From positions 1,620,001 to 1,652,000 of the forward strand of contig NZ_LN831039.1 in assembly GCF_001457595.1 (NCBI RefSeq): a DNA stretch of 32,000 nucleotides, written 5' to 3'. The stretch comes from Mycolicibacterium smegmatis. GTDB lineage: Bacteria > Actinomycetota > Actinomycetes > Mycobacteriales > Mycobacteriaceae. The stretch's first letter is position 1. Each line of letters begins with the position of its first letter. Below are positions 4,432-31,144 of this stretch, piece by piece. Under the pieces are notes generated by a model. That model was given only the letters and a program-made list of their open reading frames with translations, was not told the origin of the DNA and did no database searches. The position numbers and the translations under genes were made by a program.

Positions 4432-4454
4432 AAGAGTTCCCGCCGCAATCAGAT

Positions 4455-6083
4455 TCAGAAGATGATGATCGCGACCACGGTCGACAGGACCAGCCCTGCC
4501 ATCACCGGCAGGAAACACTTGCGGGCCAGGCTGAGCACCGGCACCCGGGCGAAGCCGGCGACGGCCACCAGCGACGACCACGCCACGAGCGTGCCGCCAC
4601 CCGACCAGATGTTGCCCATCTGACCGATCGCGGCCAGCGTCGACGGATCCATGTGCACCACCGGACCCAGCGCCCCGGACAGCGACCCGGTCAACGGCAG
4701 GCCACTGAAACCCGAGCCCTCCAGGCCGGCGATGAGTCCGACGAACAGCACCGCGAACGACGTGACGACGGGGTTCGGCGACAAATGCGACTGGGCGGCG
4801 GTGATCAGGTCGAACAGGAACGCCGGACCGGTGGCGTCGGCGGGCATGCCGAGGATGGCCGCCGAGAAGTCACCGTTGCCGATGAAGAAGAACCCTGCGA
4901 TGGGCAGCACGATGCCCATCGCCTTGAACGCGAACACCAGACCGTCGACGACGTGTTGCGACGAGGTCTCCAGGAAGTTGCGCTTGTCGTTGGTGGCCGC
5001 GGCGGCGAACAGCAGCATGGCGGCCAGGCCACCCACGATCGCCGCGGCGTCGCCGCCCTGGAGCGGGGGCACCACATTGGTGAACTTGCCGAGCAGCAGA
5101 TAGACGATGAACGCCAGGTACACCAGCGGGACCAGGAGTGCGAACACCTTCGCCGACAGTTTCTTCGGTTCCTGCTCACCGGTCTCGGCCCCGGTGTCCA
5201 CTATGGCCTCCACGATCACCGCGGCCTTCACTGCCTTCACGGTGGCCACGGCCGTGTCGCCGTCAGAGCGGGTGGGGCCGTCGGTGACCGTGGGTCCGGC
5301 GGGAGCGGGTTTGCGTCCGTTGGAGCCGGCCGTGGCGCTCGGACTGCCCGCCGGCCCGCCGCTCGGGGAATCCTCATCGTCGTCGCCGACACCTCGGCGC
5401 TCGGCCGCGTTCTCCCATTCGACAAGCAGTTCCGGTGACGGGTTGCGCCACGTGCGACGCTGCATGACGTAGGTGATCCCCAGCGCGGTCAACCCCACGA
5501 TGAGGGACAGCACCATGGCCTTGTCGGCAACCGAATCAGGGTCGACGCCAGCGGCTTTCGCGGAGATGCCGGGTGCGACCTTGATGATGTAATCCGACGA
5601 CAGGGCCATGCCCTGACCGGCGATCGCGATGACCATGCCCACCGACATCGGCGAGAGGCCCGCGCGGATCGCGACCGGGATGAGCACCGCGCCCACGAGC
5701 GGGACGGCAGGGGTGGGCCAGAAGAACAGCGAGATCACGTAGGTGACGATCGCGAGCACGATGAAACTGCTCGTCCCGGCGCGCATGACGCGGCGGAACG
5801 GGGTGACCATCATGCGGTCGGCGCCCATCTCGCGCAGCGCGCCCAGCATGGCCGTGACGATCGCGATGATCAGGAAGATGTTGAACAGTTCCTTGGCCGC
5901 GGTCAGGCTCGCGTTGAATATCGCCGACAGGCCGGTGATCAGGCTGCCCGAGAACGCCCAGGCAGTGAGCAGCGTTGCAGTTACCGCAGGCACGACGATG
6001 TTCTTGCGGACCGCCATCGTGAGCAGGATGACCACGATTCCGGCGAGGTATATCCAGTGCGCCGCGGTGAGTGGGGTGTCCAA
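4455..6083 (-). CDS. Polytopic permease, paralogue 1 (ion-transporter-superfamily-like, GntP/CitMHS-type architecture; family not securely assigned)
   Basis: 542 aa and hydrophobic throughout, with two multi-helix halves split by an acidic Pro/Gly-rich loop (GDDDEDSPSGGPAGSPSATAGSNGRKPAPAGP...). TTG start at 6083 is preceded by GAGAGG 7 nt upstream. About 40-50 percent identical by eye to the ORF at 16620..18140; shared strings include AAHW.YL, IAGQGMALSSDYI, APAFLFD, GLP.TGSL and GGGTLV.WSSL. Confidence 0.8.
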   Translation of the reverse strand: MDTPLTAAHWIYLAGIVVILLTMAVRKNIVVPAVTATLLTAWAFSGSLITGLSAIFNASLTAAKELFNIFLIIAIVTAMLGALREMGADRMMVTPFRRVMRAGTSSFIVLAIVTYVISLFFWPTPAVPLVGAVLIPVAIRAGLSPMSVGMVIAIAGQGMALSSDYIIKVAPGISAKAAGVDPDSVADKAMVLSLIVGLTALGITYVMQRRTWRNPSPELLVEWENAAERRGVGDDDEDSPSGGPAGSPSATAGSNGRKPAPAGPTVTDGPTRSDGDTAVATVKAVKAAVIVEAIVDTGAETGEQEPKKLSAKVFALLVPLVYLAFIVYLLLGKFTNVVPPLQGGDAAAIVGGLAAMLLFAAAATNDKRNFLETSSQHVVDGLVFAFKAMGIVLPIAGFFFIGNGDFSAAILGMPADATGPAFLFDLITAAQSHLSPNPVVTSFAVLFVGLIAGLEGSGFSGLPLTGSLSGALGPVVHMDPSTLAAIGQMGNIWSGGGTLVAWSSLVAVAGFARVPVLSLARKCFLPVMAGLVLSTVVAIIIF

Positions 6084-6167
6084 AGCGGGACCTCTCGTTG
6101 AACTGCTGGTGGGCTGTGCAGTCAGATGCTGGAATGTTCGGCGCGGTCACGGCCTGGGTCAACGACA

Positions 6168-6205
6168 ACAGTGCACAGCCGGAACTGTCAGGCCCTGTGC
6201 ACTGT
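6168..6205. promoter_or_regulatory. 11-bp perfect inverted repeat built on GTGCAC cores; candidate operator or 5-prime UTR hairpin
   Basis: ACAGTGCACAG (6168-6178) and CTGTGCACTGT (6195-6205) are exact reverse complements 16 nt apart. They lie in the divergent region between permease 1 and the MFS gene. A near copy, ACAGTGCACA, occurs at 16488-16497 upstream of permease 2. Confidence 0.4.
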
Positions 6206-6304
6206 GTTCCGATCTTGTCGATCGCATGGCGGGGCGTTACGGACCTGTAAAGGCTGTTACGTTTGACCGGGAGTCGCCGTGCACACCGCGACGACCGGGA
6301 TTTT

Positions 6305-6320
6305 TGTGCACTTTGACCCG
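6305..6320 (+). promoter_or_regulatory. Island box copy 1: TGTGCACTTTGACCCG
   Basis: Exact TGTGC-N3-TTGAC, 142 nt upstream of the MFS start at ATG 6455. It is one of four exact copies, all intergenic and all in the same orientation as the downstream gene. Confidence 0.55.
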
Positions 6321-6454
6321 AGCCCCGCGTAATGCGTTGTGCACCTTCACTTGACGGGAACCGCCAACACCGGGCCTCGCGGTGGGAGAGTGGCGGGCAG
6401 AGACATCCACGCGCACTCACCGATTCGTCAGCCAACAGGATGGTTACGCACAGC

Positions 6455-7831
6455 ATGACCGATGTTCGCCAGACGCCGACTCCCGACGCCGCGCCGCCCA
6501 CCGGCGCGGATACCGGTACGCCGCTGGGGCTCGCGGCGCTGCTCGCGGGCACGCTCGTGGGCACGGTCAGCAACAACGTCGTGAACGTCCCACTCGACGC
6601 GATCATCGGTGAGTTCGATGCTTCTTTGGGAAACGGCGTTTTCGTCGTGGTGGGCTTCCTGGTCTGTTTCGCCGCGACCATACCGTTGGCCGGATGGTTC
6701 GGCGACCGCTTCGGGCGCAGGCGGGTGTACTGCGCGGCGCTGCTCGCCACGGCGGTATGTGCTGTCGGCGCGGCGACCGCACCGTCGTTGCCGCTGCTGA
6801 TCGCATGGCGGTCGGTGGGTGGGGTTGCTGCGGCTGCGTTCGCTCCGGCCGTGATGGGACTGCTCGCGTGGATGTTCTCCGGTGCGCGCCGTGGCCGGGC
6901 CATGGGCGCGTGGGCATCGGTCAACGGTATCGGGCAGGCCGTGGGCCCGACCCTGGGCGGACTGGTGGCCGATCACTGGGGATGGCGCTGGATCTTCGTT
7001 CCCCTGGTCCCTGTCGCGCTCGCGGGTTTTGTCGGCACGCTGCGCTACGTACCGAAGTTCCCCGGCGCGAGGATGCGCTTCGACCTGGCCGGGGCGGCCG
7101 CGCTGACGTTCGGTTCGGCGCTGCTGATGCTCGGATTGGCCATCGTGCCGCAACCGAACGTGAGCGGCTGGGCCGCGGCGGGATCGGTCGCGCTCGGTGT
7201 CGTCGCACTGGTCTGGTTCTGCTTTCACTGTGCGCGCGTGCCCAATCCGTTCGTCAACGTTCGCCTGGTCACCGAATCGCGTTTTGCCAGAAGTGCTCTC
7301 GCGGCGTTTGCGCAGATGTTCTGCCTCGGGGCCACTCTGCTGGCCGTGCCGCTGTACCTCGTGGCGCATGCGGTTTCGATATCGACGGCCGGCCTGGTGC
7401 TGTTCACGGTGCCCGTCGCGATGGCCGTGCTGGGCCCGGTGGTCGGCCGCCGTCAGGACCGCCTGGGCCCCAGGCTCGTGCTGCGTGTCGGGCTCGTCGT
7501 GTTGCTGGCCGTGCAGATCGCCCTGGCCGTCACGGTTGCCCAGGACCGCCTGCTGCTCGGGGTGCTGATTGCTGCACTGGTGACGGCCGGGGTGGGGATC
7601 GCGCTGGTGCAGACGCCGGCGGCCACCGGGGCCACCCGCTCACCCGCGGGTGCGGAGGGGACCGGACTGGGGCTGTTCAACCTGGTGCGGTTTGCCGGAT
7701 CGGCCTGCGGTGCAGCGTGGGTCGCGGTCGCACTCTCGGGGCCCGCGTCGTTCCCCGGGGTGTTCATCGCGTCCGCGGTGATCGTGGCCCTCGGGCTGGC
7801 CGGGACGTTCTTCGGTCCCGACCCGGCCTGA
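6455..7831 (+). CDS. MFS transporter (drug:H+ antiporter-like)
   Basis: From ORF 6332..7831. Start placed at ATG 6455 (MTDVRQTP...); ATG 6440 is possible. MFS motif A is present as GWFGDRFGRRRVY, and the hydrophobic helices are spaced across the whole length. Confidence 0.85.
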   Translation: MTDVRQTPTPDAAPPTGADTGTPLGLAALLAGTLVGTVSNNVVNVPLDAIIGEFDASLGNGVFVVVGFLVCFAATIPLAGWFGDRFGRRRVYCAALLATAVCAVGAATAPSLPLLIAWRSVGGVAAAAFAPAVMGLLAWMFSGARRGRAMGAWASVNGIGQAVGPTLGGLVADHWGWRWIFVPLVPVALAGFVGTLRYVPKFPGARMRFDLAGAAALTFGSALLMLGLAIVPQPNVSGWAAAGSVALGVVALVWFCFHCARVPNPFVNVRLVTESRFARSALAAFAQMFCLGATLLAVPLYLVAHAVSISTAGLVLFTVPVAMAVLGPVVGRRQDRLGPRLVLRVGLVVLLAVQIALAVTVAQDRLLLGVLIAALVTAGVGIALVQTPAATGATRSPAGAEGTGLGLFNLVRFAGSACGAAWVAVALSGPASFPGVFIASAVIVALGLAGTFFGPDPA

Positions 7832-9517
7832 TCAGCGAAAGCTCGCCTCGCGTTCGACCGCGGAGTGCACCTCGTCGAGCAGATCGAGGCGGATGGCCAG
7901 CCACACCGTGAACTGGTGCTCCGGATCGCGGACATCCATGCCGAGCATGCGGGAGATCCGGTCGAGCTTGGCGAGCATGGTGTTGCGGTGCACGTTGAGC
8001 GTGCGCGCGGTGGCGTTGATGTTGCCGCCCTCGGACAGGTACGCCTCCAGCGTCTCCAGCAGATCGGGTGAGGAACGCAACGGCCCCAACACGTCTCGCA
8101 CCAGCTGGCGGCTGTCCTCGGTCTCGGCGACCTGGGCCAGCACCGTGAAACCCCGCAACTGTTGATACGACGTCGCACCCGTGCGGTGCAGGCGCCGCGC
8201 GATACCGAGCGCAACCCTGGCCTCCCGGTAGCTCTCCCGGACCTCCCCGGCGCCGAGCGCCGGGCGGCCGTAGGCGACGGGCGCGGGAAGGCCCCGTCGC
8301 CGCTGCAGCTCGCCGGACATGGCCTCGGCATACTCGGCCATCTCGCTGCGCATGGCCGCAGCGTCCTCGCCGCGCAACGTGCGGACCACGACGAGCACGT
8401 CGCCGATCACCGTGACGTAGGCATGCACCGACGGGTGCGCCGCCACCCCGGCCGCGTACCGCGCCAGCCGCACCATCGGCGTCGTAGGACTGTCGGAAAC
8501 CCTGGGCAGCACACCGGGCGCCACGAAAACACCGAACCGCGCGTCGAGTTCGATGTCGTGATGCTCGGCGCGGGCGCGCATGTCGTGCTCGCTGGAGAAG
8601 CTGCCGTGCACCAGGGCCTGGACGAAATCACCCCGCGCGCGTTCCTCGGCCTCGTCGACGCTGCGTTGCCGCAACATCTCCGACCCGATGATCGCGGTGG
8701 CCTGTTCGGTGAGCACCTCGTGCCGCGCCAGATCGTGCTTGCTCGGGCCGTCGGCGTGATCGGGAGCCAACGTCGGGACCAGGACGGCCACCCAGCCCTC
8801 GAACGACTTGCCCAGCCGGATCGCGCTCGCCACACACGTCCATCTGCTGTCCTCCGGACCGGTGACCTGCTGCGTGCGCGTGTCGTGGCCGTCGTGGCGC
8901 CGCTCCGACGCCGGGAGGTCGGCGGCCAGCATCCGGCTCACCGAATCGGCCAGGGCGGCCACGGCTTCGGGGGGCAGGCCGTGGTGGGCCACCACATGAC
9001 CGCGGGCATCGAGTGCCACGGCGGGATTGCGCGCCAGGTTGGACACCTCGCGCACCAAAATCTGCAGGCCCGCGCCACGGTGGAACAGGCCGGCCAGGGT
9101 GGCGTGCACGTGCGTCGAGTAGCGCATGACGTGCACCTCCTGGCTGAGCGCGCGCTCGGCCAGCAGCCGGTTGAGGGCCGCGAAACCCACCGGGATGCCG
9201 AGTTCCACGACCACCAGCCCGGCGGGCAGCCCGCCCAGGTCCGGTGGGGCGACACCGTCGACCAGCAGCGTGGTCGCGCCCCTGGCGGCGAGCGCCGAAA
9301 GCGTCGAAGCGCGGCCCGTCAACGATTCGGGGCGCGCGTACACCGCCACCGCGTCCAGCCGATCATGTTGTGACAGAACCTCGTTGAGTGGAAGCACCCA
9401 GGTGAGTTCCTCGTCGAGCAGGTCTTCGCCCGCGACGATCCGCGAACCAGCCATGAGGGACTCGTCCAGAAGCCCGCGCACCGTCATCCGGCCGCTGTCG
9501 ATCGGTGGTGCCGTCAT
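7832..9517 (-). CDS. PucR-family transcriptional regulator
   Basis: 561 aa. The C-terminal PucR-type HTH reads NINATARTLNVHRNTMLAKLDRISRMLGMDVRDPEHQFTVWLAIRL. ATG 9517 is preceded by a GGGGG Shine-Dalgarno sequence. It is divergent from the glcG-like/oxygenase operons. Confidence 0.85.
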   Translation of the reverse strand: MTAPPIDSGRMTVRGLLDESLMAGSRIVAGEDLLDEELTWVLPLNEVLSQHDRLDAVAVYARPESLTGRASTLSALAARGATTLLVDGVAPPDLGGLPAGLVVVELGIPVGFAALNRLLAERALSQEVHVMRYSTHVHATLAGLFHRGAGLQILVREVSNLARNPAVALDARGHVVAHHGLPPEAVAALADSVSRMLAADLPASERRHDGHDTRTQQVTGPEDSRWTCVASAIRLGKSFEGWVAVLVPTLAPDHADGPSKHDLARHEVLTEQATAIIGSEMLRQRSVDEAEERARGDFVQALVHGSFSSEHDMRARAEHHDIELDARFGVFVAPGVLPRVSDSPTTPMVRLARYAAGVAAHPSVHAYVTVIGDVLVVVRTLRGEDAAAMRSEMAEYAEAMSGELQRRRGLPAPVAYGRPALGAGEVRESYREARVALGIARRLHRTGATSYQQLRGFTVLAQVAETEDSRQLVRDVLGPLRSSPDLLETLEAYLSEGGNINATARTLNVHRNTMLAKLDRISRMLGMDVRDPEHQFTVWLAIRLDLLDEVHSAVEREASFR

Positions 9518-9551
9518 GTCAACCCCCGTGCTGTGTGCCTGGTGCGCCCTC

Positions 9552-9595
9552 TGGTGCCTGTTATTCGATTACCGGACCCCTCGTCACAGGCACCA
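9552..9595. promoter_or_regulatory. 10-bp inverted repeat in the pucR / glcG-like divergent region; candidate autoregulatory operator
   Basis: TGGTGCCTGT (9552-9561) and ACAGGCACCA (9586-9595) are exact reverse complements 24 nt apart. The repeat directly abuts island box copy 2. CTGGTGC also occurs twice in direct orientation (about 9538 and 9551). Confidence 0.4.
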
Positions 9596-9611
9596 TGTGC
9601 AACTTGACCCG
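9596..9611 (+). promoter_or_regulatory. Island box copy 2: TGTGCAACTTGACCCG
   Basis: Exact TGTGC-N3-TTGAC, 110 nt upstream of ATG 9714. It is followed at +23 by CCGGTCATATTAACCAT (9627-9643), which is 13/17 identical to the box at the same offset after copy 3. A degenerate extra copy, TGTGCCCGTTGAT, lies at 9655-9667. Confidence 0.55.
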
Positions 9612-9713
9612 TCGCGGCGCATTTTTCCGGTCATATTAACCATCACCTGGTCGGTGTGCCCGTTGATAGACATGGCTCCGTCAGCCCGAGCTGCGAGAGA
9701 GCGAGAGAGACCA

Positions 9714-10160
9714 ATGCACAGAATTCACCGCATCACCCTCGACGACGCGTTGCCATTGCTGGCCGCGGGCCGTGCCAAAGCCGAGGAGATCGGGGTCAAG
9801 CAGACCCTGTGCATAGTGGACGACGGCGGCAATGTCATTGCGCTGCACCGGTTGCCGGGAGCCCGTCTGACCGGTGTGGACATCGCGATCGCGAAGGCCT
9901 TCACCGCCGCAGGTCACGAACGTGCCACCCACCTGTTCAACGAACCGCCCAACGGGCCCGCATTGCCCGGCAACGAGGCGTTCGGCATCAGCCATATGCT
10001 GCCCGGCAAGTTCGCGATCTTCGTCGGCGGGTTCCCGTTGGTCTACGACGGGCAGATCGTCGGGGGAGTGGGCATCAGCGGCGGCAACGGCGAGCAGGAC
10101 AAGGCCGTGGGGGCGGCGATCCTCGCCGAGTTCGAGGCGCTCACCGCCGCCCAGGTGTGA
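9714..10160 (+). CDS. GlcG/HbpS-like (DUF336) haem-binding-family protein
   Basis: Start placed at ATG 9714 (MHRIHRITLDDALPLLAAGRAKAEEIGV), preceded by the purine-rich GAGAGAGCGAGAGAGA. The DUF336 hallmark GGFPLVYDGQIVGGVGISGGNGEQDKAVG is present. The upstream part of ORF 9126..10160 is antisense to pucR and was rejected. Confidence 0.8.
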   Translation: MHRIHRITLDDALPLLAAGRAKAEEIGVKQTLCIVDDGGNVIALHRLPGARLTGVDIAIAKAFTAAGHERATHLFNEPPNGPALPGNEAFGISHMLPGKFAIFVGGFPLVYDGQIVGGVGISGGNGEQDKAVGAAILAEFEALTAAQV

Positions 10161-10166
10161 CCCGGA

Positions 10167-10182
10167 TGTGCAGGTTGACCCC
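10167..10182 (+). promoter_or_regulatory. Island box copy 3: TGTGCAGGTTGACCCC
   Basis: Exact TGTGC-N3-TTGAC, 104 nt upstream of ATG 10279. It is followed at +23 by CCGGTGATTGTGACCAT (10198-10214). Confidence 0.55.
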
Positions 10183-10278
10183 GCCGCGGGCGCCGGCCCG
10201 GTGATTGTGACCATGGCCCGCACCCCGAGGCGTCACTAATCTCCCTGGAACCCAAGCATTTTCAGCGAAAGGAAACTC

Positions 10279-10998
10279 ATGACCGAGCTACTGGGACGCG
10301 ATGAATTCCGTGCCGAACTGGAGAACGCGATCAAGGGGCGTGAAGCCAAGAACGCCTCGTTCTCCAAGGCATGGGCCGAGGGCAAGCTGACCAAGGATCA
10401 CTTCGCCCGCTGGGCCGAGAACCACTACCACTACGTGGGCCCGTTCGCCGACTACCTGGCCAACATCTACTCCAACACCCCCGACGAGTTCACCGGCGCG
10501 AAAGACTTCACGCTGCAGAACATGTACGAGGAGGAGCTGGCCGACATCCGCCACACCGACCTGCTCATCAAGTTCGGTGAGGCGTGCGGGACCACGCGTG
10601 AGCGCATCGAGGACCCGTCGAACATGAACCCGATCACGCGCGGTCTGCAGGCGTGGTGCTATGCGGTCTCGCAGCGCGAGCACTTCGTGGTCGCCACCGC
10701 GGCGCTGGTGGTGGGCCTGGAATCCCAGGTGCCCAGCATCTACACCAAGCAGATCGTGCCCCTGCGCGAGGTGTACGGCTTCACCGAGGACGAGATCGAG
10801 TTCTTCGACCTGCACATCACGTCCGACGTCGTGCACGGCGAGCGCGGATACCAGATCGTGCTCGACCACGCCGACACCCCGCAGTTGCAGCAGCGCTGCC
10901 TGCAACTGGTGCGCTGGGGCGCCGAGATGCGCTTCTCCTACACCAAGGGCCTCTACGACTACTACGTCGCACCGGATCTCCAAGCCGCAGGCGTCTGA
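10279..10998 (+). CDS. Haem-oxygenase-fold (PqqC/TenA/CADD-like) protein with a complete putative diiron ligand set
   Basis: 239 aa and collinear with PqqC-like proteins (N-terminal LLGRDEFRAELE..., C-terminal tail LYDYYV). Candidate ligands are E85 (10531), H92 (10552), E148 (10720), H179 (10813), D183 (10825) and H186 (10834). This gives E-x6-H ... E ... H-x3-D-x2-H, the spacing I recall for the CADD diiron site. RBS AAAGGA lies before the ATG. Confidence 0.75.
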   Translation: MTELLGRDEFRAELENAIKGREAKNASFSKAWAEGKLTKDHFARWAENHYHYVGPFADYLANIYSNTPDEFTGAKDFTLQNMYEEELADIRHTDLLIKFGEACGTTRERIEDPSNMNPITRGLQAWCYAVSQREHFVVATAALVVGLESQVPSIYTKQIVPLREVYGFTEDEIEFFDLHITSDVVHGERGYQIVLDHADTPQLQQRCLQLVRWGAEMRFSYTKGLYDYYVAPDLQAAGV

Positions 10999-11043
10999 TC
11001 CCTGATCCCTGAAACCCCGCCGCCTCGACAGAAAGGTTGTGCT

Positions 11044-11394
11044 GTGACTGCGAACTGGGTTGCGGTGGCGAGCCGTAAAGAGCTCGCCCGCCGCCGCAAA
11101 CTCCGCGTGGAACTCGACGGTCTGGCCATCGCGCTGTTCGAGGCGGCGGGCCGGGTGTACGCATTCGCCGACGCATGCGTGCACCAGGACCGGTCGCTGG
11201 TCAAAGGCACCCTGCTGCACGGCAAGGTGATCTGCCCCGGCCACCAATGGCAGTTCGACCTGGAGACCGGATACGAGGAGAGCCAAGGCCGCTGCCAGCC
11301 CACCTACGCGGTGCGCGTCGACGACGACACCGTCTACGTGGACCCCACCGCGCGGATGTCACCCGTGACCGCAGGAGAGGAAGCCAACGCATGA
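11044..11394 (+). CDS. Rieske [2Fe-2S] ferredoxin 1 (small, NirD/HcaC-like)
   Basis: 116 aa. Rieske ligands are CVH (C-x-H) and CPGH (C-x-x-H) within CPGHQWQFDLETG. There is no catalytic oxygenase domain. GTG start with AAAGG upstream. The stop overlaps the next start (ATGA at 11391-11394). Confidence 0.85.
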   Translation: MTANWVAVASRKELARRRKLRVELDGLAIALFEAAGRVYAFADACVHQDRSLVKGTLLHGKVICPGHQWQFDLETGYEESQGRCQPTYAVRVDDDTVYVDPTARMSPVTAGEEANA

Positions 11395-12617: not shown

Positions 12618-14056
12618 CTGTCGAGGGAGCCAACTTCATCGACGGGCAGTGGATCCCGGCCGCGTCGGGACGCACCTTCGCGCGTCACAACCCGGCCGAC
12701 CCCGACGATCTCGTCGGGGTCTTCCCGGCCTCCGACGGCGTCGACGTGCGCACCGCCGTCGACGCGCTCGACAAGGCCGCCCCCGAATGGGCCGCCACGC
12801 CGCCCGAACGCCGTGCGGCGATCCTGGAAGCCGCTGCCGTGCAACTGGAATCACGCGCAGCGGAGTTGATCGCCGAATTGATCCGCGAAGAGGGCAAGAC
12901 CACCGCCGAGGCCACCATGGAGGTGAGCCGGACCCCGGCGAACCTGCGCTTCTACGCCGGCGAGGCGCTGCGGTCCACGGGCACCACCTACCCCGCACCG
13001 GGGGAGGGTCTGGTCTACACGCTGCGTGAGCCCGTCGGCATCGTCGGCGCCATCACACCGTGGAACTTCCCGTTCAACATCCCGTCACGCAAACTCGGGC
13101 CGGCGCTCGCGGCAGGAAATCCGGTGCTGTACAAGCCCTCCGAACTCACCCCGCTGATGGGGCAGCGTCTGGTCGAGGCGTTGTTGGACGGTGGGCTGCC
13201 GCCCTCGGCGCTCGCGCTGGTCCAGGGCGACGGCGTGGCGGGTGCCGCGGTCGCCGCGGATCCACGCGTCGCAGCGGTCACCTTCACCGGGTCGACAGCC
13301 GTCGGCCGTGCGATCCACCAGCAGGTCGGACCCCAGCGCCGCGTCCAACTGGAGATGGGCGGCAAGAACCCCGTGGTGGTCGCCGGGGACGCCGACCTCG
13401 ACGCCGCGGCCGCCCTCATCGTCAAAGGCGCGTTCGGGCTCAGCGGACAGGCCTGCACCGGGACCAGCCGCGTGATCGCGGTCGACGAGATCCACGATGC
13501 GCTGCTCGACCGCGTGGTGGCCAAGGCCGACGCGCTGCAGGTCGGGCCCGGCAATCAGCCCGGTGTGCACATGGGTCCGCTGGCCAGCGCGGCCCAGAGG
13601 GAAAAGTTCCTGCACTACGTGCACGCCGGGATCACCGAGGGCGCCACCCTGCGCTGCGGCGGCACCACGGTGGGCGATCACGGATTCTTCGTCCGCCCGG
13701 CGGTTTTCGCCGACGCGCTGCCGACCATGCGCATCGTCACCGAGGAGGTGTTCGGGCCGCTGGTCGCGTTCCAGCGCGCGGCATCCCTCGACGAGGCCGT
13801 CGCGCTGGCCAACGCCACCGAGTACGGACTGGCGGCCTCGATCGTCACGTCGGACCTCGCCGCGGCGACACGGTTCGCCCGGCAGTCGAAGACCGGCCTG
13901 GTCAAGATCAACCAGCCGACCACGGGCATGGCGATGAACGCGCCCTTCGGCGGCTACAAGGCGTCGAGCACCCAGACCTTCAAGGAACAGGCCGGGCCGA
14001 CGCTCATGGAGTTCTACACGCTCGAGAAGACCGTCTACCTCACCCCGGCCCTCTGA
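12614..14056 (+). CDS. NAD(P)+-dependent aldehyde dehydrogenase
   Basis: GTG 12614 follows AGGAGG (12601-12606) and overlaps the reductase stop (GTGA). Contains FIDGQWIP, the ALDH glutamate box LEMGGKNP and the catalytic cysteine context GQACTGTSR. Confidence 0.9.
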   Translation: MTVEGANFIDGQWIPAASGRTFARHNPADPDDLVGVFPASDGVDVRTAVDALDKAAPEWAATPPERRAAILEAAAVQLESRAAELIAELIREEGKTTAEATMEVSRTPANLRFYAGEALRSTGTTYPAPGEGLVYTLREPVGIVGAITPWNFPFNIPSRKLGPALAAGNPVLYKPSELTPLMGQRLVEALLDGGLPPSALALVQGDGVAGAAVAADPRVAAVTFTGSTAVGRAIHQQVGPQRRVQLEMGGKNPVVVAGDADLDAAAALIVKGAFGLSGQACTGTSRVIAVDEIHDALLDRVVAKADALQVGPGNQPGVHMGPLASAAQREKFLHYVHAGITEGATLRCGGTTVGDHGFFVRPAVFADALPTMRIVTEEVFGPLVAFQRAASLDEAVALANATEYGLAASIVTSDLAAATRFARQSKTGLVKINQPTTGMAMNAPFGGYKASSTQTFKEQAGPTLMEFYTLEKTVYLTPAL

Positions 14057-14070
14057 ACACAGGAGCTGCA

Positions 14071-14424
14071 ATGGAATTCACCCGAGTCGCCAGATCCGGT
14101 CAGGTGCCCGAGGGCATCGTGCGACGGTTCTTCGCGGGCGAGTACGAGTTCGCCGTGGCCCGCCTCAACGGCAAGGCCTACGCGACGTCCAACTACTGCA
14201 CGCATCTGGACTGCATGCTCTCGTCGGGCAAGCTCGTCGACGACGGCATCGGATGCTCGTGCCACGGAAGTGCATTCGACCTCGAGACCGGTGAGCCCAT
14301 CTGCCCGCCCGCCACGGTCGCGATCAAGACCTACCCGGTCGAGGAACGCGACGGCGAGATCTTCGTCGGTGTCGAGCCGGGGGAGATGCCCGTCGGACCG
14401 CGGCGGCGACGCAAGGGGGCGTGA
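14071..14424 (+). CDS. Rieske [2Fe-2S] ferredoxin 2 (BphF/TodB-like)
   Basis: 117 aa. Ligands are CTH ... CSCH (CTHLDCMLSSG, CSCHGSAFDLETGE). AGGAG RBS is present. The stop overlaps the GGT-family gene start (GTGA at 14421-14424). Confidence 0.85.
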   Translation: MEFTRVARSGQVPEGIVRRFFAGEYEFAVARLNGKAYATSNYCTHLDCMLSSGKLVDDGIGCSCHGSAFDLETGEPICPPATVAIKTYPVEERDGEIFVGVEPGEMPVGPRRRRKGA

Positions 14425-16025
14425 GCCAGGTGCAGCGGCCGCCGACACTGTCCACCGGCGCGATGGTCAGCTCGAGCCATCCCGCCGCCAGCTTCGCCGG
14501 GGCGCGCGTACTCGCCGACGGCGGCAACGCGATCGACGCGACCCTGGCGATGGCCGCGGTCACGTGGCTGACGTTGCCCGGTCAATGCGGCATCGGCGGC
14601 GACGCGTTCGTCGTCGTGGCCGAACCCGACGGGCGGGTGTGGACGGTCAACGGGTCCGGCTTCGGCCCCGACGGCGGCACCACGGACTTCTATCGCGACA
14701 TTCAGGGCGAACGATCTGGTATTCCCCTGACCGGTGCGCTCGGTGTCGCGGTTCCCGGCGCCCCGGCGGCATTGGCCGCGTTGCACTCCCACGGCGCACG
14801 CATGTCGCTGGCGGAGCTGTGGGAACCGGCGGCGCGCATGGCCGAGAACGGACTGGCGTGCTCGGCCAAGACCGTCACCGACGTGCGGGAGACGTTCGAC
14901 GCGATCCGCGCCGACGACGGTCTGGCGGCCGTGTACACGCCCGACGGCGCCGTCCCCGCGGTGGGGCAGCGGTTGCCGCAACCCGACCTGGCCCGCACCA
15001 TCCGCCGGCTCGCCACCGCGCCCGGTGATTTCTACACCGGCGAGTTCGCCGAACGCGCCGTGGCGGTGCTGTGCGCGGCAGGCGCCCCGTTCAGCGGCGA
15101 CGAATGGGCCGCCGGTGCCGTCGTCGCTCCCGAGGCCCCGCTCACGGGCGGCTACGCCGGTGCGACGATTCACCAGACGCCACTACCCACCCCCGGCTGG
15201 ATGGTGTTGCAGCAGGCCGCGCTGTGCGACGGAACCCTCGGTGCGGCACCGTGGCTGGGCGCCGAGGCCATCGACCGCATGGCCCGGGCAGCTCGGCTGG
15301 CGTTCCAAGACCGGTTCGCGCTGTGCGGATCCGACGGCGCGGGTGTGCGAGAGGTGCTGGACGCCAACCGGATCGCCGAACAGCGGCGTGCTCTGGATGC
15401 GTCGGCGGAACAGCGGATGTCGTTCAGCGTCGCCGGCGGTGACACGACGTGCACGGTCGCCGTCGACGCCGACGGGCGTGCCGTGTCGTTCATCCATTCC
15501 CTGGGTTTCACGTTCGGGGCCAAGCTCACGGTGCCCGGAACCGGCGTCGTCCTCAACAACCGGTTGGGCCGCGGTGCCTACCTGATCCCCGGGCATCCCA
15601 ACGAGGTCGCGCCGCGCCGCAAACCACTGAACACCCTCAACGCCTGGATCGCCACCGGCGCCGATGGGGAACTGCTCGCCCTCGGCTCCATCCCCGGCGG
15701 CGATGGTCAGGTGCAGTGGAACATGCAGTTGCTCTCGCACCTGTTCGACCACGGGCTGGACCCGGCCGAGGCGGTCAGCGCACCGCGTTTCACGGTGTTC
15801 CCCGGATCCGACGCCGACGTCATCGGCAGGCCCGACGAATTGCGCGTCGAGGCAAGGATTCCCGACGACGTCCGGTCGGAGTTGCAGGACATGGGGCATC
15901 GCGTCGTGGTGCAACCGGATTTCGGCGCCGGCGGAAGCGCCCAGGTGATCCGCCGCGACGCGCGCGGTGTGCTCAGCGGCGCGGCCGACCCGCGTCAGGA
16001 AGGGATCGCGATCGGTGTCGAGTGA
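14421..16025 (+). CDS. Gamma-glutamyltransferase-family Ntn hydrolase
   Basis: 534 aa. The N-terminal region reads SSHPAASFAGARVLADGGNAIDATLA. The autoprocessing/nucleophile threonine context is GGDTTCTVAVDADGRAVSFIHSLG. Substrate cannot be read from sequence, because this family includes non-glutamyl amidohydrolases. Confidence 0.85.
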   Translation: MSQVQRPPTLSTGAMVSSSHPAASFAGARVLADGGNAIDATLAMAAVTWLTLPGQCGIGGDAFVVVAEPDGRVWTVNGSGFGPDGGTTDFYRDIQGERSGIPLTGALGVAVPGAPAALAALHSHGARMSLAELWEPAARMAENGLACSAKTVTDVRETFDAIRADDGLAAVYTPDGAVPAVGQRLPQPDLARTIRRLATAPGDFYTGEFAERAVAVLCAAGAPFSGDEWAAGAVVAPEAPLTGGYAGATIHQTPLPTPGWMVLQQAALCDGTLGAAPWLGAEAIDRMARAARLAFQDRFALCGSDGAGVREVLDANRIAEQRRALDASAEQRMSFSVAGGDTTCTVAVDADGRAVSFIHSLGFTFGAKLTVPGTGVVLNNRLGRGAYLIPGHPNEVAPRRKPLNTLNAWIATGADGELLALGSIPGGDGQVQWNMQLLSHLFDHGLDPAEAVSAPRFTVFPGSDADVIGRPDELRVEARIPDDVRSELQDMGHRVVVQPDFGAGGSAQVIRRDARGVLSGAADPRQEGIAIGVE

Positions 16026-16446
16026 GCAGACCGGCGCACCGGCGCCGCAGGGCGACTACCGGCCCGCGCTGTTGCATGACGGTGTCGTCTACACCGCGGG
16101 CATGACACCGCGCCGCGACGGTGAACTCGTGCTGCGCGGCGTCGTCGGGGTCACGGTGTCGGCCGGGCAGGCCTTCGACGCGGCCGGCATCGCCGCGGGC
16201 AACGCGCTGGCCGCGGCACGCTCGGTGCTGCCCGACGGTGCAACGGATGTCCGCTGCCTGCGCATGACCGTGTACATCGCGTGCGCTCAGTCGTTTCACG
16301 AGCTCTCCGCTGTGGCCGACGGTGCCTCGGCCGCGCTGGGCGCTGAGCTCGGCGGATCAGGCGTTCCGGTGCGCGCGGCCATCGGCGTGCAGACCCTGCC
16401 GTCGGGTGCGCCCGTCGAGGTGGATCTCATCGCTGCGGTGGTGTAG
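16015..16446 (+). CDS. RidA/YjgF/L-PSP-family protein (reactive enamine/imine deaminase family)
   Basis: Start placed at GTG 16015 (VSSEQTGAPAPQGDYRPALLHDGVVYTAGMTPR), with GAAGGGA 9 nt upstream and an 11-nt overlap with the GGT-family gene. Size of about 143 aa and the N-terminal Y..A...G.....G pattern fit the family. Confidence 0.7.
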   Translation: MSSEQTGAPAPQGDYRPALLHDGVVYTAGMTPRRDGELVLRGVVGVTVSAGQAFDAAGIAAGNALAAARSVLPDGATDVRCLRMTVYIACAQSFHELSAVADGASAALGAELGGSGVPVRAAIGVQTLPSGAPVEVDLIAAVV

Positions 16447-16514
16447 GTGCGGTTGTTCTGGTTGGCGGGTGTGAAAAGAAAAGGGGCACAGTGCACATGG
16501 ATCGGCAGCAACCA

Positions 16515-16530
16515 TGTGCGGTTTGACGCC
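16515..16530 (+). promoter_or_regulatory. Island box copy 4: TGTGCGGTTTGACGCC
   Basis: Exact TGTGC-N3-TTGAC, 97 nt upstream of the permease 2 start. It is preceded by ACAGTGCACA (16488-16497), which resembles the inverted-repeat arms at 6168-6205. Confidence 0.55.
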
Positions 16531-16619
16531 GGTGTCTTCCGGCAAATCGGTCGAATTGCGGAAAATGGTGAGCACCTTAGGGTTACATGAATTCAAGGTA
16601 GCCAGGCAGTTCTAGTCGA

Positions 16620-18140
16620 TTGGATGTGAACGCGGTGTCCGCAGCTCATTGGGTGTACCTGCTCGGTCTTGTGGTGTTGATCGGCACAGTGGTGGCCAAG
16701 AAGAACGTCATCGCGCCTGCGCTCATCGCCACATTCCTCACCGGATGGGTCTACCAGGGCAGCGTGACCACCGGGCTGGGAGCCATCTTCAACGCCGCGA
16801 TCGCCGGAACCCGCGAGTTACTGCCGATTTTCATCATCATCGCCCTCGTCACCGCGATGCTCGGTGCCATGCGTGCGCTGGGCTCCGACGCCATCATGAT
16901 CCGTCCGCTGCGCGGGTTGTTCCGCAACGGGCACATCTCCTACGTGTTGCTCGCTGTCGTGACGTTCCTTCTGTCGCTGGCGTTCTGGCCGACACCCGTG
17001 CTGCCGCTGATCGCGGCGATCCTGCTCCCGGCCGCCGTCCGCGCCGGCCTACCGCTGCTCGGCGCCGCACTCGCGATCGCCATCGCAGGCCAGGGCATGG
17101 CGCTGAGTTCGGACTACATCATGGGCGTGGCGCCTGCGCTCTCGGCCGAGGGCGCCGACGTTCCGGCCCGGTTGATCGCCGACCGTGCGACGGTCATCGC
17201 CCTGATCGCGGGCGCCGTGGCCTTGGCGATCGTGTATCTTCGCGACGTGCGCACCAAGGTGCGTGCCCCGGGCGATGGTGACGACATCGGTTCGGCTGCT
17301 TCGGGTTTCGCGCAGGATCCCGACTCGCCGGAGCCGAGTTCCGGCCCGATCGCCGGGCCTGGTGGTCAGGCAGACGGCGGCGCCTTGGCCACCCTCAGCG
17401 CGCCTGCGGCGACCGACGTCGAAGCGGCTCCGGGGCGCAAGGCCCTGCTGATCGCTGTCGCAGTGCCCGCACTGTTCGCCGGCCTGCTCGTCTTCATGCT
17501 CCTCGGGCGGTTCACCACGGTCATCCCCGACATCGACGAAGGTCTCGGCGCTCCGCTGGTTGGCGGCACCGCTGCTCTCGCGCTCGTGGCAATCGCTCTG
17601 ATCAGCAACCGCAAACGCTGGCTCGACGACGTCGGCGAGCACTTCACCGAAGGCATCGGCTTCTCGTTCCGCACCATGGGCATGGTCATCCCGGTCGCGG
17701 GATTCGTCTACATCGGCCTGGCCGACTACTCCGCGGGCATCCTGGGCCTGCCGGAAGGCGCCGAGGCGCCGGCCTTCTTGTTCGACGCCGTCGGCGCGGT
17801 ACAGGACCACATCCCGGCGGCCCCGGCCTTCGCGGCCTTCGCGATGTTGATCGTCGGCATGCTGATCGGGCTGGACGGCAACGGCTGGCCCGGTCTCCCG
17901 TTCACGGGTTCGCTGGCGTCGACTCTCGGGGACGGGACGTCCGACGTCGCCACCTTGGCGGCGATCGCGCAGAACGGTGCCAGCTGGACCGGGGGCGGCA
18001 CGCTGGTGATCTGGTCGTCACTGATCGTCGTCGCGGGTCTTACCGGGGTGTCGGTGATGGACCTGGCCCGACGCCTGTTCATCCCGGTCGTCACAGGACT
18101 TGTGGTGGCCACCGGCATCGCGACGGTGGTGCTGCTGTGA
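16620..18140 (+). CDS. Polytopic permease, paralogue 2 (same family as 4455..6083)
   Basis: 506 aa. TTG start at 16620; in-frame GTG 16626 is an alternative. It has the same two-half architecture as permease 1, with a divergent acidic/Pro-rich central loop (GDGDDIGSAASGFAQDPDSPEPSSGPIAGPGGQADGG). The stop overlaps the amidase start (GTGA at 18137-18140). Confidence 0.8.
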   Translation: MDVNAVSAAHWVYLLGLVVLIGTVVAKKNVIAPALIATFLTGWVYQGSVTTGLGAIFNAAIAGTRELLPIFIIIALVTAMLGAMRALGSDAIMIRPLRGLFRNGHISYVLLAVVTFLLSLAFWPTPVLPLIAAILLPAAVRAGLPLLGAALAIAIAGQGMALSSDYIMGVAPALSAEGADVPARLIADRATVIALIAGAVALAIVYLRDVRTKVRAPGDGDDIGSAASGFAQDPDSPEPSSGPIAGPGGQADGGALATLSAPAATDVEAAPGRKALLIAVAVPALFAGLLVFMLLGRFTTVIPDIDEGLGAPLVGGTAALALVAIALISNRKRWLDDVGEHFTEGIGFSFRTMGMVIPVAGFVYIGLADYSAGILGLPEGAEAPAFLFDAVGAVQDHIPAAPAFAAFAMLIVGMLIGLDGNGWPGLPFTGSLASTLGDGTSDVATLAAIAQNGASWTGGGTLVIWSSLIVVAGLTGVSVMDLARRLFIPVVTGLVVATGIATVVLL

Positions 18141-19636
18141 GCGAGGTGCACGCAGTGCCTGGTCGCACCGTCGCCGAGACGGCCGCCCTGGTGCGTTCGG
18201 GTGAGATGAGCGCCCACGCCGTCGTGCAGGAGGCCCTCGACCGGATCGAGGAGTGCGATGGTGCGCTCGGCGCGTTCGTCCACGTCGACGCCGAGGGCGC
18301 ACTGCAGCGGGCGAGCGCGGTCGACCGGCTGGTGGCAGACGGCATCGATCCCGGGCCGATGGCCGGAATCCCCTTGGGCGTCAAGGAACTTCATCCGGTG
18401 GACGGCTGGCCGTTCGCGATGGGCAGCACGCTGTACGCCGAGCGGATCGCCGACCACACCTGCACCCTGGTGCAACGTGCCGTCTCGGCGGGTGCGGTGC
18501 CCATCGGCGTGACGGCCTCACCGGAGTTCGGGCGGGCGTCTTTCACCGCGTCGGCCGTGCACGGCGTGACCCGCAATCCGTGGAATCTCGATCTCACCCC
18601 CGGCGGGTCGAGCGGGGGGTCGGCGGCCGCGGTGGCCGCGGGCATGGTGCCGATCGCTACGGGCACCGACGGTGCGGGCTCGTTGCGTATCCCGGCGTCG
18701 TACTGCGGTCTGGTGGGGTTCAAGGCCACATACGGCCTGGTCCCGCGCGGGCCCCGGCATGTCGGTGCGGCCGACAACGACCACTACGGCGTGCTCACAC
18801 GCACCGTGCGCGACACCGCCCGTTTTCTCGACTGCGTTTGTGGGATCGATCCGTTCGACCGGGCCTCACTGCCCGCGTCGACCCGGTTCGAAGACCACCT
18901 GACCGCCGATCTGCGTGGGCTTCGCGTCGCCTTCACACCCGATCTGGGCAATGCGCCCAGCGACACACAGGTCGTGGAGGTGGTGCGGACAGCGGCCGAG
19001 AAATTCGTCGCCGCCACCGGTGCCCAGTCGGTGCCCGCTCAAGTGTGCGTCGATCCGGACTGCGGCGCCGCCTACCGCACACTCTCGGCGCCCGACGTGC
19101 ACACACACCTACGTGATGCGCCGGCCGGGCGGAACATCCACCCGACGCTGCGCGGTTACCTGGACGCCGCGGGCGCCATGACCGCCGAGACGCTCGCCGA
19201 CGCCCACGAGGCACGCGCCCGTCTCGTCGCGACGATGGCCGAGGCATTCGAGCGTTTCGACCTGCTCCTGCTGCCCGCCACGCAGGTCCCGGCGTTCGCG
19301 GCCGAGGGTCCCATGCCCACCGAGATCGCGGGGCAGAAGGTGGACCACTGGGGTGCGTTGGCCGTGACCTTGCCGTTCAACCTGACCGGTCAGCCGGCCG
19401 TGTCGGTGCCGGCAGGCGTCGTCGGCGGTGCTCCGGTCGGCCTGCAGATCGTGGGCCGTCGTCACGCCGACGCACTGGTGCTCGCGGCCGCCTCGGCGGA
19501 TGCTGCGCTGACCTGCTGGTCGGACCGGTTCCGCGAATGTGAAACCGCTGCGAGAAAATGGCCGCTGGATCGCGCTGAGTTCACACTCGCGGCGCGGTTT
19601 CGCGTCAGGTTCACACTCGCGATCCCGGTCCGGTGA
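18137..19636 (+). CDS. Amidase-signature (AS) family amidase
   Basis: Contains the AS motif GGSSGGSAAAVAAGMVPIATGTDGAGSLRIPASYCGLVGFKATYG and the upstream lysine context IPLGVKE. The last 35 or so codons run through a repeat cluster (19532-19621), so the true C-terminus is uncertain. Confidence 0.88.
   Translation: MSEVHAVPGRTVAETAALVRSGEMSAHAVVQEALDRIEECDGALGAFVHVDAEGALQRASAVDRLVADGIDPGPMAGIPLGVKELHPVDGWPFAMGSTLYAERIADHTCTLVQRAVSAGAVPIGVTASPEFGRASFTASAVHGVTRNPWNLDLTPGGSSGGSAAAVAAGMVPIATGTDGAGSLRIPASYCGLVGFKATYGLVPRGPRHVGAADNDHYGVLTRTVRDTARFLDCVCGIDPFDRASLPASTRFEDHLTADLRGLRVAFTPDLGNAPSDTQVVEVVRTAAEKFVAATGAQSVPAQVCVDPDCGAAYRTLSAPDVHTHLRDAPAGRNIHPTLRGYLDAAGAMTAETLADAHEARARLVATMAEAFERFDLLLLPATQVPAFAAEGPMPTEIAGQKVDHWGALAVTLPFNLTGQPAVSVPAGVVGGAPVGLQIVGRRHADALVLAAASADAALTCWSDRFRECETAARKWPLDRAEFTLAARFRVRFTLAIPVR
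19532..19621. repeat. Nested direct and inverted 13-17 bp repeats at the island / ribosomal-operon junction
   Basis: GTTCACACTCGCG occurs twice in direct orientation (19579-19591 and 19609-19621, 30-bp period). CGCGAATGTGAAAC (19532-19545) is its near reverse complement. GAAACCGC (19541-19548) pairs with GCGGTTTC (19594-19601). Confidence 0.6.
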
Positions 19637-19655
19637 GGCCCGGTCGAGCAGCGAT

Positions 19656-19684
19656 TTGGAGCATTGGGCGAGCTCACCTAGTAT
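19656..19684 (+). promoter_or_regulatory. Candidate sigma-A-type promoter of the spc ribosomal operon
   Basis: TTGGAG (19656-19661), a 17-bp spacer, then TAGTAT (19679-19684). This would give a leader of about 135 nt before GTG 19826. Confidence 0.45.
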
Positions 19685-19825
19685 GTAGGGGTTGCCTTGG
19701 GCAGACCTTGGCTGGTTGATGCTGTTTTCGCAGACTCAGACAGCCTCGCGTGCCTTTAGGGGACAAAGACCGCGCACGTCCAGGTCGGTATCTGGCGTGC
19801 ATACAAAACCAGGTCAGGAGATCGA

Positions 19826-20194
19826 GTGATTCAGCAGGAATCGCGGTTGAAGGTCGCCGACAACACGGGCGCCAAGGAGATCTTGTGCATCCGCGTTCTC
19901 GGTGGCTCGTCGCGGCGCTACGCCGGAATCGGCGATGTCATCGTGGCGACCGTCAAGGACGCCATCCCGGGCGGCAACGTCAAGCGTGGCGATGTCGTCA
20001 AGGCCGTCGTGGTCCGCACCGTCAAGGAGCGGCGTCGTGCTGACGGCAGCTATATCAAGTTCGATGAGAACGCCGCCGTCATCATCAAGAACGACAACGA
20101 TCCGCGCGGCACGCGCATCTTCGGCCCCGTGGGCCGCGAACTGCGCGAGAAGAAGTTCATGAAGATCGTCTCGCTTGCCCCGGAGGTGCTGTAA
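19826..20194 (+). CDS. rplN: 50S ribosomal protein L14
   Basis: [27 protein letters not shown]... is the canonical L14 sequence. GTG start follows AGGAG. Confidence 0.98.
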
Positions 20195-30230: not shown

Positions 30231-30238
30231 GGACGTCC

Positions 30239-31135: not shown

Positions 31136-31144
31136 CGTCAACTC

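Follow-up and report, generated by a model that had tools for sequence, protein, structure and literature searches.

Why do some 15 kb of DNA separate the FGE gene from rplN, the first gene of the spc operon, in Mycolicibacterium smegmatis, and what do the genes carried there do? The stretch lies within a 32,000-nucleotide segment of contig NZ_LN831039.1 (the window; positions below are counted from its first letter unless another locus is named), and an original prediction made from the letters of that segment had described it as lineage-specific cargo, acquired into a slot that is normally nearly empty. Our analysis favors a different history. We consider it likely that the block is a long-resident, dispensable catabolic cluster in a hypervariable slot, that it was there before the sampled fast-growing lineages split, and that vertical inheritance since then has been accompanied by several complete or partial losses.

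The genes of the block were identified by open reading frame (ORF) calling guided by the G+C content of third codon positions (GC3), together with Pfam and NCBIfam searches and gene calls at orthologous loci. Because the G+C content of the window is high (0.62-0.73), raw ORF lists were noisy, and calls were therefore filtered by GC3 and cross-checked with these other sources. Exactly thirteen genes lie between FGE (3541-4431) and rplN (19826-20194):

4455-6083, minus strand: permA, a predicted 542-aa permease of the IT superfamily (elevator type); no Pfam or NCBIfam family; 100% identical to M. smegmatis P0001
6440-7831, plus strand: MFS transporter, DHA2/EmrB-like (Pfam MFS_1, 4.9e-50; TIGR00711, 8e-51, under cut-off)
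7832-9517, minus strand: PucR/CdaR-family transcriptional regulator (Pfam HTH_30, 5e-22, and GGDEF_2, 1e-12), divergent from the main operon
9714-10160, plus strand: HbpS-like/GlcG (DUF336) protein (Pfam HbpS-like, 1.4e-32); 93-100% identical across Mycobacteriales
10279-10998, plus strand: heme-oxygenase-like diiron oxidase/oxygenase (HDO), related to CADD (Pfam Haem_oxygenas_2, 2e-34); 78-92% identical across actinobacterial orders
11044-11394, plus strand: Rieske [2Fe-2S] ferredoxin 1 (Pfam Rieske, 2e-14)
11391-12617, plus strand: FAD/NAD(P)H ferredoxin reductase (FdR), HcaD/AndAa-like (Pfam Pyr_redox_2, 1.7e-60, and Reductase_C; NF042949, 8e-102, under cut-off)
12614-14056, plus strand: aldehyde dehydrogenase (ALDH; Pfam Aldedh, 1.5e-144)
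14071-14424, plus strand: Rieske [2Fe-2S] protein 2 (Pfam Rieske, 4.8e-18); 83-100% identical across Mycobacteriales
14421-16025, plus strand: gamma-glutamyltranspeptidase-family (Ntn) hydrolase, GGT-like (Pfam G_glu_transpept, 7.8e-91)
16015-16446, plus strand: RidA/YjgF-family imine deaminase (Pfam Ribonuc_L-PSP, 9e-13)
16620-18140, plus strand: permB, a paralogue of permA; orthologues 65-88% identical in mycobacteria and Actinomadura
18137-19636, plus strand: amidase-signature amidase (Pfam Amidase, 1.1e-94)

From HDO to the RidA gene, neighbors overlap by at least 4 bp or are separated by short gaps only. The longest ORF of the MFS gene starts at 6332, and orthologue calls are 458-463 aa long. 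Both Rieske proteins (116-117 aa) keep the CxH and CxxH cluster motifs, and no N-terminal signal peptide was noticed in the GGT-like hydrolase on inspection by eye.

The edges of the block were set by alignment to four empty sites (L086, L087, L038 and L023; L numbers denote loci in other genomes). Homology with the empty sites extends up to the last FGE codons, stops there, and resumes at about 19645-19654, from where it continues to the start of rplN; the block therefore spans 4432-19644, or 15.2 kb. According to PMC5445863, MSMEG_1445 is S17, MSMEG_1452 is FGE (sulfatase-modifying factor 1) and MSMEG_1465 is L14, so that the block corresponds to the MSMEG_1453-1464 region. Scans of the window yielded no tRNA and no Rfam match, and no ORF carried an integrase, transposase or other mobility domain by Pfam or NCBIfam; the intergenic gaps are too short to hide one. 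No repeat common to both edges rose above shuffle level (local alignment of 4340-4470 against 19500-19670 scored 17; shuffle mean, 16), and a target-site duplication or att sites were rejected on that ground. A resemblance of the right edge to the 3' end of FGE at L038 was taken as chance because it is not reproduced inside the window.

Several parts of the original description held. ORF, domain and orthologue calls bear out thirteen coherent genes between FGE and rplN, and the tRNA, domain and edge-repeat scans agree with its statement that no integrase, insertion sequence (IS) or tRNA marks the edges. The dense repeat cluster that it placed at the right edge is indeed there (19521-19632), as are two permease paralogues in opposite orientation near the two ends, which are 45% identical by BLASTP (E 9e-133).

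Occupancy of the slot was surveyed by an FGE-anchored scan of species-representative genomes, in which 38 mycobacterial loci were among the matches listed; 25 of these were informative. Five loci (L025, L027, L028, L029 and L033) have FGE with neither rplN nor block genes in reach and were counted as uninformative; the rest of the uninformative loci end too early or carry FGE elsewhere. Among these listed matches, the block was absent from 23 of the 25 informative loci, all slow-grower-like ones included, with rplN 0.18-7.9 kb past FGE, and block genes (permA, MFS, PucR, HDO and FdR) followed FGE in only two metagenome-assembled genomes (L007 and L031). Clean empty sites, with an FGE-rplN gap of 0.14-0.36 kb, were found at 13 loci. 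The block is also missing from two fast growers, L086 and L087, that have the same RplN sequence as M. smegmatis; their gene order is rpsQ-atsA-hyp-FGE-rplN, with 140 bp between FGE and rplN.

Where the block is missing, the slot often holds something else. Slow growers such as M. asiaticum and M. numidiamassiliense have FGE, then one to three genes for DUF4436 membrane proteins, sometimes accompanied by a PBP-like gene or a BBE oxidase, and then rplN. Other cargo includes DapB-like dehydrogenases, a DUF222-HNH gene, DUF1275, and a Cons_hypoth698 membrane protein, in some cases next to TetR/P450/PPDK-like genes. The FGE-rplN slot is a hypervariable site, with different cargo in different species. 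The DUF222-HNH gene is found in Mycobacterium sp. 852002-51971 (L017, 10986-12503); we take its product to be of the REP13E12-repeat protein type, and hence presumably a mobile-type element in the slot.

At least eight further fast-growing lineages carry the block itself in this slot, facing the same way. Its left side stands beside atsA/FGE in M. phlei (L081) and M. neoaurum (L085); its right side, with the amidase gene followed by rplN, is seen in M. litorale (L083) and M. peregrinum (L098); and it adjoins rplN in M. goodii (L092), in genome CP092364 (L093) and in M. parafortuitum-type genomes (L094 and L095).

Outside the mycobacteria, the gene set is found at unrelated loci. Rhodococcus sp. 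Z13 has the identical order permA-MFS-PucR-HbpS-HDO-Rieske-FdR-ALDH-Rieske-GGT, and the set is kept in shuffled orders in Actinomadura rugatobispora, Pseudonocardia and Janibacter terrae. A four-gene core (permease, 50% identical; HDO, 66-70% identical; ALDH; HbpS-like) is carried by a Skermanella plasmid and by the chromid of Cupriavidus metallidurans CH34. When HDO was searched against PLSDB by tblastn, only proteobacterial chromids and plasmids matched, so that no plasmid route into mycobacteria is evident. A DUF1275 membrane-protein gene adjoins permA in M. phlei (L081, 11639-12352), M. neoaurum (L085, 11560-12228), one of the metagenome-assembled genomes (L031, 11288-11998) and Aldersonia (L099, 1801-2526); it is not in the M. 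smegmatis window.

How long has the block been in place? In a small, distance-based neighbor-joining tree of concatenated HDO, Rieske 1, FdR, ALDH and Rieske 2, mycobacteria are monophyletic, Rhodococcus sp. Z13 is their sister and Actinomadura falls outside; the block-gene tree agrees with taxonomy. The GC3 of the block (0.867) lies within the range of its flanks (0.849-0.875), and by 4-mer distance it is closer to the right flank (0.149) than its own two halves are to each other (0.178). Because the gene tree follows taxonomy and composition is native, we regard the block as old and vertically inherited, with losses. In a tree of eight ribosomal proteins (neighbor-joining, midpoint-rooted and weakly resolved), the slow-grower-like loci form one clade of 14 loci, all empty, and fast growers with and without the block are interleaved. 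The simplest account has the block either inserted once, long ago, or present from the ancestor, and thereafter passed down vertically with several losses.

These results leave only part of the predicted cargo picture standing. The block is dispensable and patchy, as the 23 empty loci and L086 and L087 attest, but it is not confined to one lineage, given its recurrence at the same site in the other fast growers. Nor is it recognizable as an acquisition, since its tree matches taxonomy and its GC3 and tetranucleotides match the flanks; the codon and k-mer contrast proposed as a check is not there. The notion of a nearly empty slot is contradicted by the varied cargo. Presence at this locus in most mycobacteria, which had been named as a sign of ancestry, holds for much of the fast-growing group and not for the family as a whole. 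The expectation that the thirteen genes travel together was confirmed in Rhodococcus, Actinomadura, Janibacter and Pseudonocardia. Of the features by which genomic islands are recognized, the block displays a sporadic distribution among close relatives; atypical composition, mobility genes, tRNA or direct repeats at the edges, and discordant phylogeny were not found.

Several points weigh against an old, vertically inherited block. The survey frequencies are indicative only, being drawn from the matches listed. If the empty state is derived, the many clean empty sites would need precise deletions. Polarity at the level of the family lacks an outgroup locus, the genera Mycobacteroides, Mycolicibacter and Mycolicibacillus lie outside the sample, and the ribosomal-protein tree is weak. 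In addition, identity to Rhodococcus Z13 (70-73%) is just marginally below that of the deepest comparisons within mycobacteria (72-75%), and an old transfer is conceivable.

Two versions of the early history can be set beside each other. A single insertion in the ancestor of the fast growers (Fortuitum-Vaccae) after the slow-grower split, such that slow growers never had the block and a few fast growers later lost it, deserves serious consideration without being probable: clean empty junctions are conserved over many lineages, the slot takes many cargos, so that insertion is evidently easy, and the mycobacterial block genes are monophyletic. However, it needs a monophyletic Mycolicibacterium, which is disputed, and still calls for several precise later losses in fast growers. 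The other version, in which the block was ancestral to all Mycobacteriaceae at this locus and was deleted in slow growers, including M. tuberculosis, and in some fast growers, strikes us as rather unlikely. The block is widespread in fast growers, which branch at or below the origin of slow growers in established phylogenies; block-bearing and empty fast growers are interleaved; a partial deletion exists within one species; and the cluster also occurs in the sister family Nocardiaceae. Nevertheless, Rhodococcus and Aldersonia carry the cluster at other loci, and all 14 slow-grower-like loci in the ribosomal-protein tree lack it, having unrelated cargo or a clean junction in its place, with the earliest-branching Mycobacteroides outside the sample.

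Recent horizontal acquisition, in which an island entered the M. smegmatis lineage by an unspecified route, is highly improbable. The block is absent from slow growers of the M. tuberculosis type and from many other mycobacteria, and its presence at unrelated loci in Rhodococcus and Actinomadura means that it can relocate as a unit; yet the site and orientation shared with eight or more further fast-growing lineages, the congruent tree and the native composition argue against a recent arrival, as does the lack of tRNA, integrase, IS or target duplication. Still less credible is the idea that the thirteen genes are unrelated neighbors with no one functional system: they run in three transcription directions and the permease-amidase pair varies independently, but the genes co-occur in five actinobacterial families in shuffled orders, have a common promoter motif, and in the main operon have overlapping start and stop codons.

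The long-resident cluster is also variable within M. smegmatis, at its right end. By blastn, positions 9826-30194 of the window are 100% identical to M. smegmatis CP082846.1 (L090), and three other M. smegmatis loci (L088, L089 and L091; ~99% identical) lack 16457-19492, that is, permB and most of the amidase gene (~3 kb). At that spot the deletion strains have 63 bp of unrelated sequence (9605-9667 in L088, L089 and L091), which does not significantly resemble the segment it replaces or any other part of the window. Among the further matching contigs, those of the deletion type are the majority in M. smegmatis (11 versus 3). Because M. goodii, M. litorale and M. peregrinum carry the pair, its presence is ancestral for M. 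smegmatis. In L094 and L095 (6953-9825), the position is taken by another permease, 52% identical to permB, and by an amidase that is 31% identical and not orthologous, and in Janibacter (L100, 16361-18462) an isochorismatase-family gene stands beside a permease-family gene, with no amidase-signature amidase found within the stretch seen. The deletion, together with the replacements in L094/L095 and Janibacter, therefore identifies the right end as an exchangeable module.

Immediately beyond this module lies the repeat cluster, located by a repeat search:

19521-19632, no strand assigned: long imperfect hairpin, CGCGAATGTGAAAC ... GTTCACACTCGCG, the latter twice

It combines a 33-nt imperfect inverted repeat (19521-19553/19600-19632) with a 29-nt tandem direct repeat (19563-19621), and folds into a hairpin of -76.9 kcal/mol (z = -2.66). 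The cluster is kept at its position in the smegmatis-goodii clade (L088, L092 and L093), strains lacking permB and the amidase included. The amidase orthologue is 460 aa long in M. goodii, M. litorale and M. peregrinum; the M. goodii cluster lies outside that ORF, whereas the M. smegmatis ORF has a C-terminal extension of ~35-40 codons that runs through it. There is no copy of the cluster at the left edge, and no canonical terminator or sigma-70 promoter was found at the right edge. Lying between the block and the spc promoter, it is most plausibly a palindromic protein-binding site, an insulator or a terminator, and is not the scar of an integration. A reading of the repeat as a dispersed element was rejected, as GTTCACACTCGCG has 4 matches with up to 2 mismatches in the rest of the window versus 2.2 expected.

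A 13-nt element has exactly four exact matches in the 32 kb, all on the plus strand and all in promoters of the block, where 0.02 would be expected by chance:

6305-6317, plus strand: TGTGCNNNTTGAC, upstream of the MFS gene
9596-9608, plus strand: TGTGCNNNTTGAC, upstream of the HbpS-like gene, in the region divergent with PucR
10167-10179, plus strand: TGTGCNNNTTGAC, upstream of the HDO operon
16515-16527, plus strand: TGTGCNNNTTGAC, upstream of permB-amidase

Variants of TGTGCNNNTTGAC with 1-2 mismatches stand at matching positions in the sampled orthologous loci of mycobacteria and in Rhodococcus, with some promoters lacking one. The promoters thus have a cis-element in common, and the genes co-occur in unrelated genomes irrespective of location, both of which are hallmarks of a regulon. 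Because the four block promoters carry TGTGCNNNTTGAC, their sequences indicate a single putative regulon. The TTGAC portion resembles a -35 element directly adjoined by an activator site, an arrangement that would fit control by the adjacent PucR-type regulator. An exact-match scan also revealed a palindrome in the divergent region between permA and the MFS gene, with a third half-site at 16488-16497:

6168-6205, no strand assigned: ACAGTGCACA-N18-TGTGCACTGT

The two permeases belong to a family that is hard to place by sequence. Searches of Pfam (E up to 10) and NCBIfam and a PDB profile search returned nothing meaningful for permA/permB, and with 496 clusters at 50% identity among 1.84 billion representatives their family is a small one. 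An AlphaFold2 (AF2) model of permA (pLDDT 67) matches MleN/NhaC, TRAP DctM (SiaQM, IseQM), VcINDY and YdaH with Foldseek probabilities of 0.8-1.0, with TM-scores of just 0.3-0.5. The model points to permA and permB as candidate elevator transporters of the IT superfamily.

At the center of the enzyme set is HDO, which scores 92.9 bits against TIGR04305 (cut-off, 200). Its E..H, E and H..D..H motifs align with those of CADD (CT610) and of the para-aminobenzoate (pABA) synthase 9pj4, and we take the aligned residues to be diiron ligands, as in the CADD structure. HDO reads SFSKAW where CADD has TFYVKW and 9pj4 has PFYIAW, placing Ser where CADD has the tyrosine of its N-terminal FY, presumably the sacrificial residue. 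For ALDH, the nearest NCBIfam models are 2,5-dioxovalerate and alpha-ketoglutarate-semialdehyde dehydrogenases, both under cut-off; for FdR, the best are HcaD and AndAa. No ORF for a Rieske/mononuclear-iron alpha subunit was found in the block. Because the HDO gene has those for a Rieske ferredoxin and an HcaD-like reductase as neighbors, the gene content suggests a three-component oxygenase in which the diiron HDO would stand in place of the Rieske alpha subunit.

Across Mycobacteriales, identity is 83-100% for HbpS-like, HDO and Rieske 2, and to their Actinomadura counterparts it is 62-88%, as compared with only 48-64% for FdR and 86-89% for RplX. Such striking conservation suggests that HbpS-like, HDO and Rieske 2 may form a tight complex. 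Outside the smegmatis-goodii group, the reductase encoded between HDO and Rieske 2 is 55-64% identical. HDO and HbpS-like are more conserved than the neighboring RplX, RplF and RplR, and Rieske 2 is about equal to them.

The presence of a GGT-like hydrolase, RidA and an amidase together with the oxygenase and ALDH suggests catabolism of an organic acid or amide; the likeliest role of the cluster would be uptake and oxidative, deamidating breakdown of a nitrogen-containing compound of this kind. On this model, the PucR-family regulator would activate the four promoters bearing the TGTGCA-N2-TTGAC element, and the IT-type permeases, perhaps with the MFS protein, would import the organic acid or amide. 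The amidase and the GGT-like Ntn hydrolase could then take off amide or gamma-glutamyl groups, after which the substrate would be oxidized by a multi-component oxygenase, with diiron HDO receiving electrons from NAD(P)H via the FAD reductase and the Rieske ferredoxin; the HbpS-like protein and the second Rieske protein would be its tightly co-evolving partners. The resulting imine would be hydrolyzed by RidA, and ALDH would convert the aldehyde product into an acid for central metabolism. At the right end, permease and amidase may together act as an exchangeable front-end module. Ldh_2 or ornithine-cyclodeaminase-family genes adjoin the module in Janibacter and Skermanella and, as a matter of speculation, could point to cyclic imino acids.

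Generalized across phyla, the proposal is of an uncharacterized catabolic pathway in which HDO has its own FAD reductase/Rieske chain, with HbpS-like and Rieske 2 as obligate partners, previously unclassified IT-type permeases, and swappable permease/amide-hydrolase front ends that would set the substrate range. We advance it tentatively, neither expecting nor discounting it. Counting against the main reading of a catabolic cluster, the substrate and every biochemical step are deduced from family membership alone, and no literature was found on MSMEG_1453-1464; searches on HDO plus Rieske and on S10/spc insertions in mycobacteria likewise returned no relevant paper.

On either side of the block, the window contains the following conserved features:

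1000-3498, plus strand: atsA arylsulfatase, left flank (Pfam Sulfatase, 6.7e-67); longest ORF; orthologues 76-81% identical in other mycobacteria
3541-4431, plus strand: FGE (MSMEG_1452), left flank (Pfam FGE-sulfatase, 1.1e-81)
19645-19825, plus strand: probable spc-operon promoter/leader, conserved in alignment with L086, L087, L038 and L023, CGATTTGGAGC ... CACCTAGTATGTAGGGGTTGCC..GGGCAGACC ... GACAAAGACCGCGCACG
19826-20194, plus strand: rplN (L14, MSMEG_1465), first spc operon gene, right flank (Pfam Ribosomal_L14, 1.7e-55)

Because its orthologues are ~783 aa long, atsA probably starts near 1150. The sequence of 19645-19825 is unchanged whether the slot is full or empty, that is, in mycobacteria with and without the block; it matches no Rfam family and probably comprises the spc promoter together with a leader element.

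Further out, a fasciclin-domain gene is split over two frames on the minus strand (294-744), where the ORF at 394-744 corresponds to positions 4-71 of Pfam Fasciclin and the ORF at 294-446 to positions 78-123, indicating a frameshifted pseudogene or a sequencing error. The rpsQ-atsA interval is variable too: rpsQ abuts atsA in L086 and L087, and extra genes are present in M. smegmatis (fasciclin) and M. phlei (DUF2306, TetR and glycosyltransferase). At 29319-31999, on the minus strand, are three tandem ORFs, the first of which is a leucine carboxyl methyltransferase (LCM) by Pfam; the other two are assigned to LCM from runs of such genes at the matching position in orthologous loci. LCM copy number downstream of SppA differs among species.

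The block is one of many catabolic clusters that set large-genome soil mycobacteria apart from M. tuberculosis. The S10-spc gap is a recurrent cargo slot in Mycobacteriaceae, its clean junction upstream of the spc promoter being a handy marker of gain and loss, and it might be a safe place for integration. Strains of M. smegmatis from the laboratory and from the wild differ by the 3-kb permease-amidase deletion, which may give unnoticed differences in nitrogen-source use; if the pathway reading is true, strains that differ solely by permB-amidase would be a ready-made natural genetic test. The cluster also points to an unstudied diiron-oxidase pathway and a transporter family that has no Pfam model, both widespread in Actinobacteria and found in some Proteobacteria.

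Viewed as an island, the block is unremarkable except for its uncharacterized enzymes. Like classical tRNA-linked, integrase-bearing islands, it is a multi-gene accessory block at a discrete site in a conserved neighborhood and is patchy among relatives; unlike them, it has no tRNA, integrase, direct repeats or compositional deviation, and is old and vertically inherited. Its regulation resembles that of the PucR/CdaR regulons (B. subtilis PucR and PmfR of pAO1) in the GGDEF_2 plus HTH_30 architecture, the divergent regulator, and several promoters with a common upstream element, whereas the regulator itself falls far under all named equivalog cut-offs and the target genes are others. Among transporters, the predicted permA fold is like that of IT-superfamily members (NhaC/MleN, TRAP DctM, DASS/VcINDY and AbgT/YdaH), and a few permease homologues are annotated as GntP or DctM; permA differs in having no Pfam, NCBIfam or PDB sequence match and a long disordered central loop.

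For the enzymes, the nearest comparison is with CADD/4-aminobenzoate synthase and other HDO enzymes (UndA, BesC, SznF and RohS), which share Pfam PF14518 with the block protein; the closest solved structures are pABA synthases of the CADD type (3e-19 to 1e-15). The block HDO departs from CADD in its score far under the TIGR04305 cut-off, in Ser for tyrosine, in a catabolic rather than folate/biosynthetic context, and in the electron-transfer partners encoded alongside. Three-component Rieske oxygenases (HcaA-D, Bph and the anthranilate dioxygenase AndA) likewise have an FAD ferredoxin-NAD(P)H reductase beside a small Rieske-type ferredoxin, but the putative terminal oxidase of the block is a heme-oxygenase-like diiron protein. 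Lastly, Puu-type catabolism of gamma-glutamyl amines offers a parallel, by analogy only, in its oxidizing step, its ALDH (PuuC) and its hydrolase for gamma-glutamyl bonds; the Puu pathway differs in its glutamine-synthetase-like ligase and its PuuB-type flavin oxidase, neither of which is in the M. smegmatis cluster.

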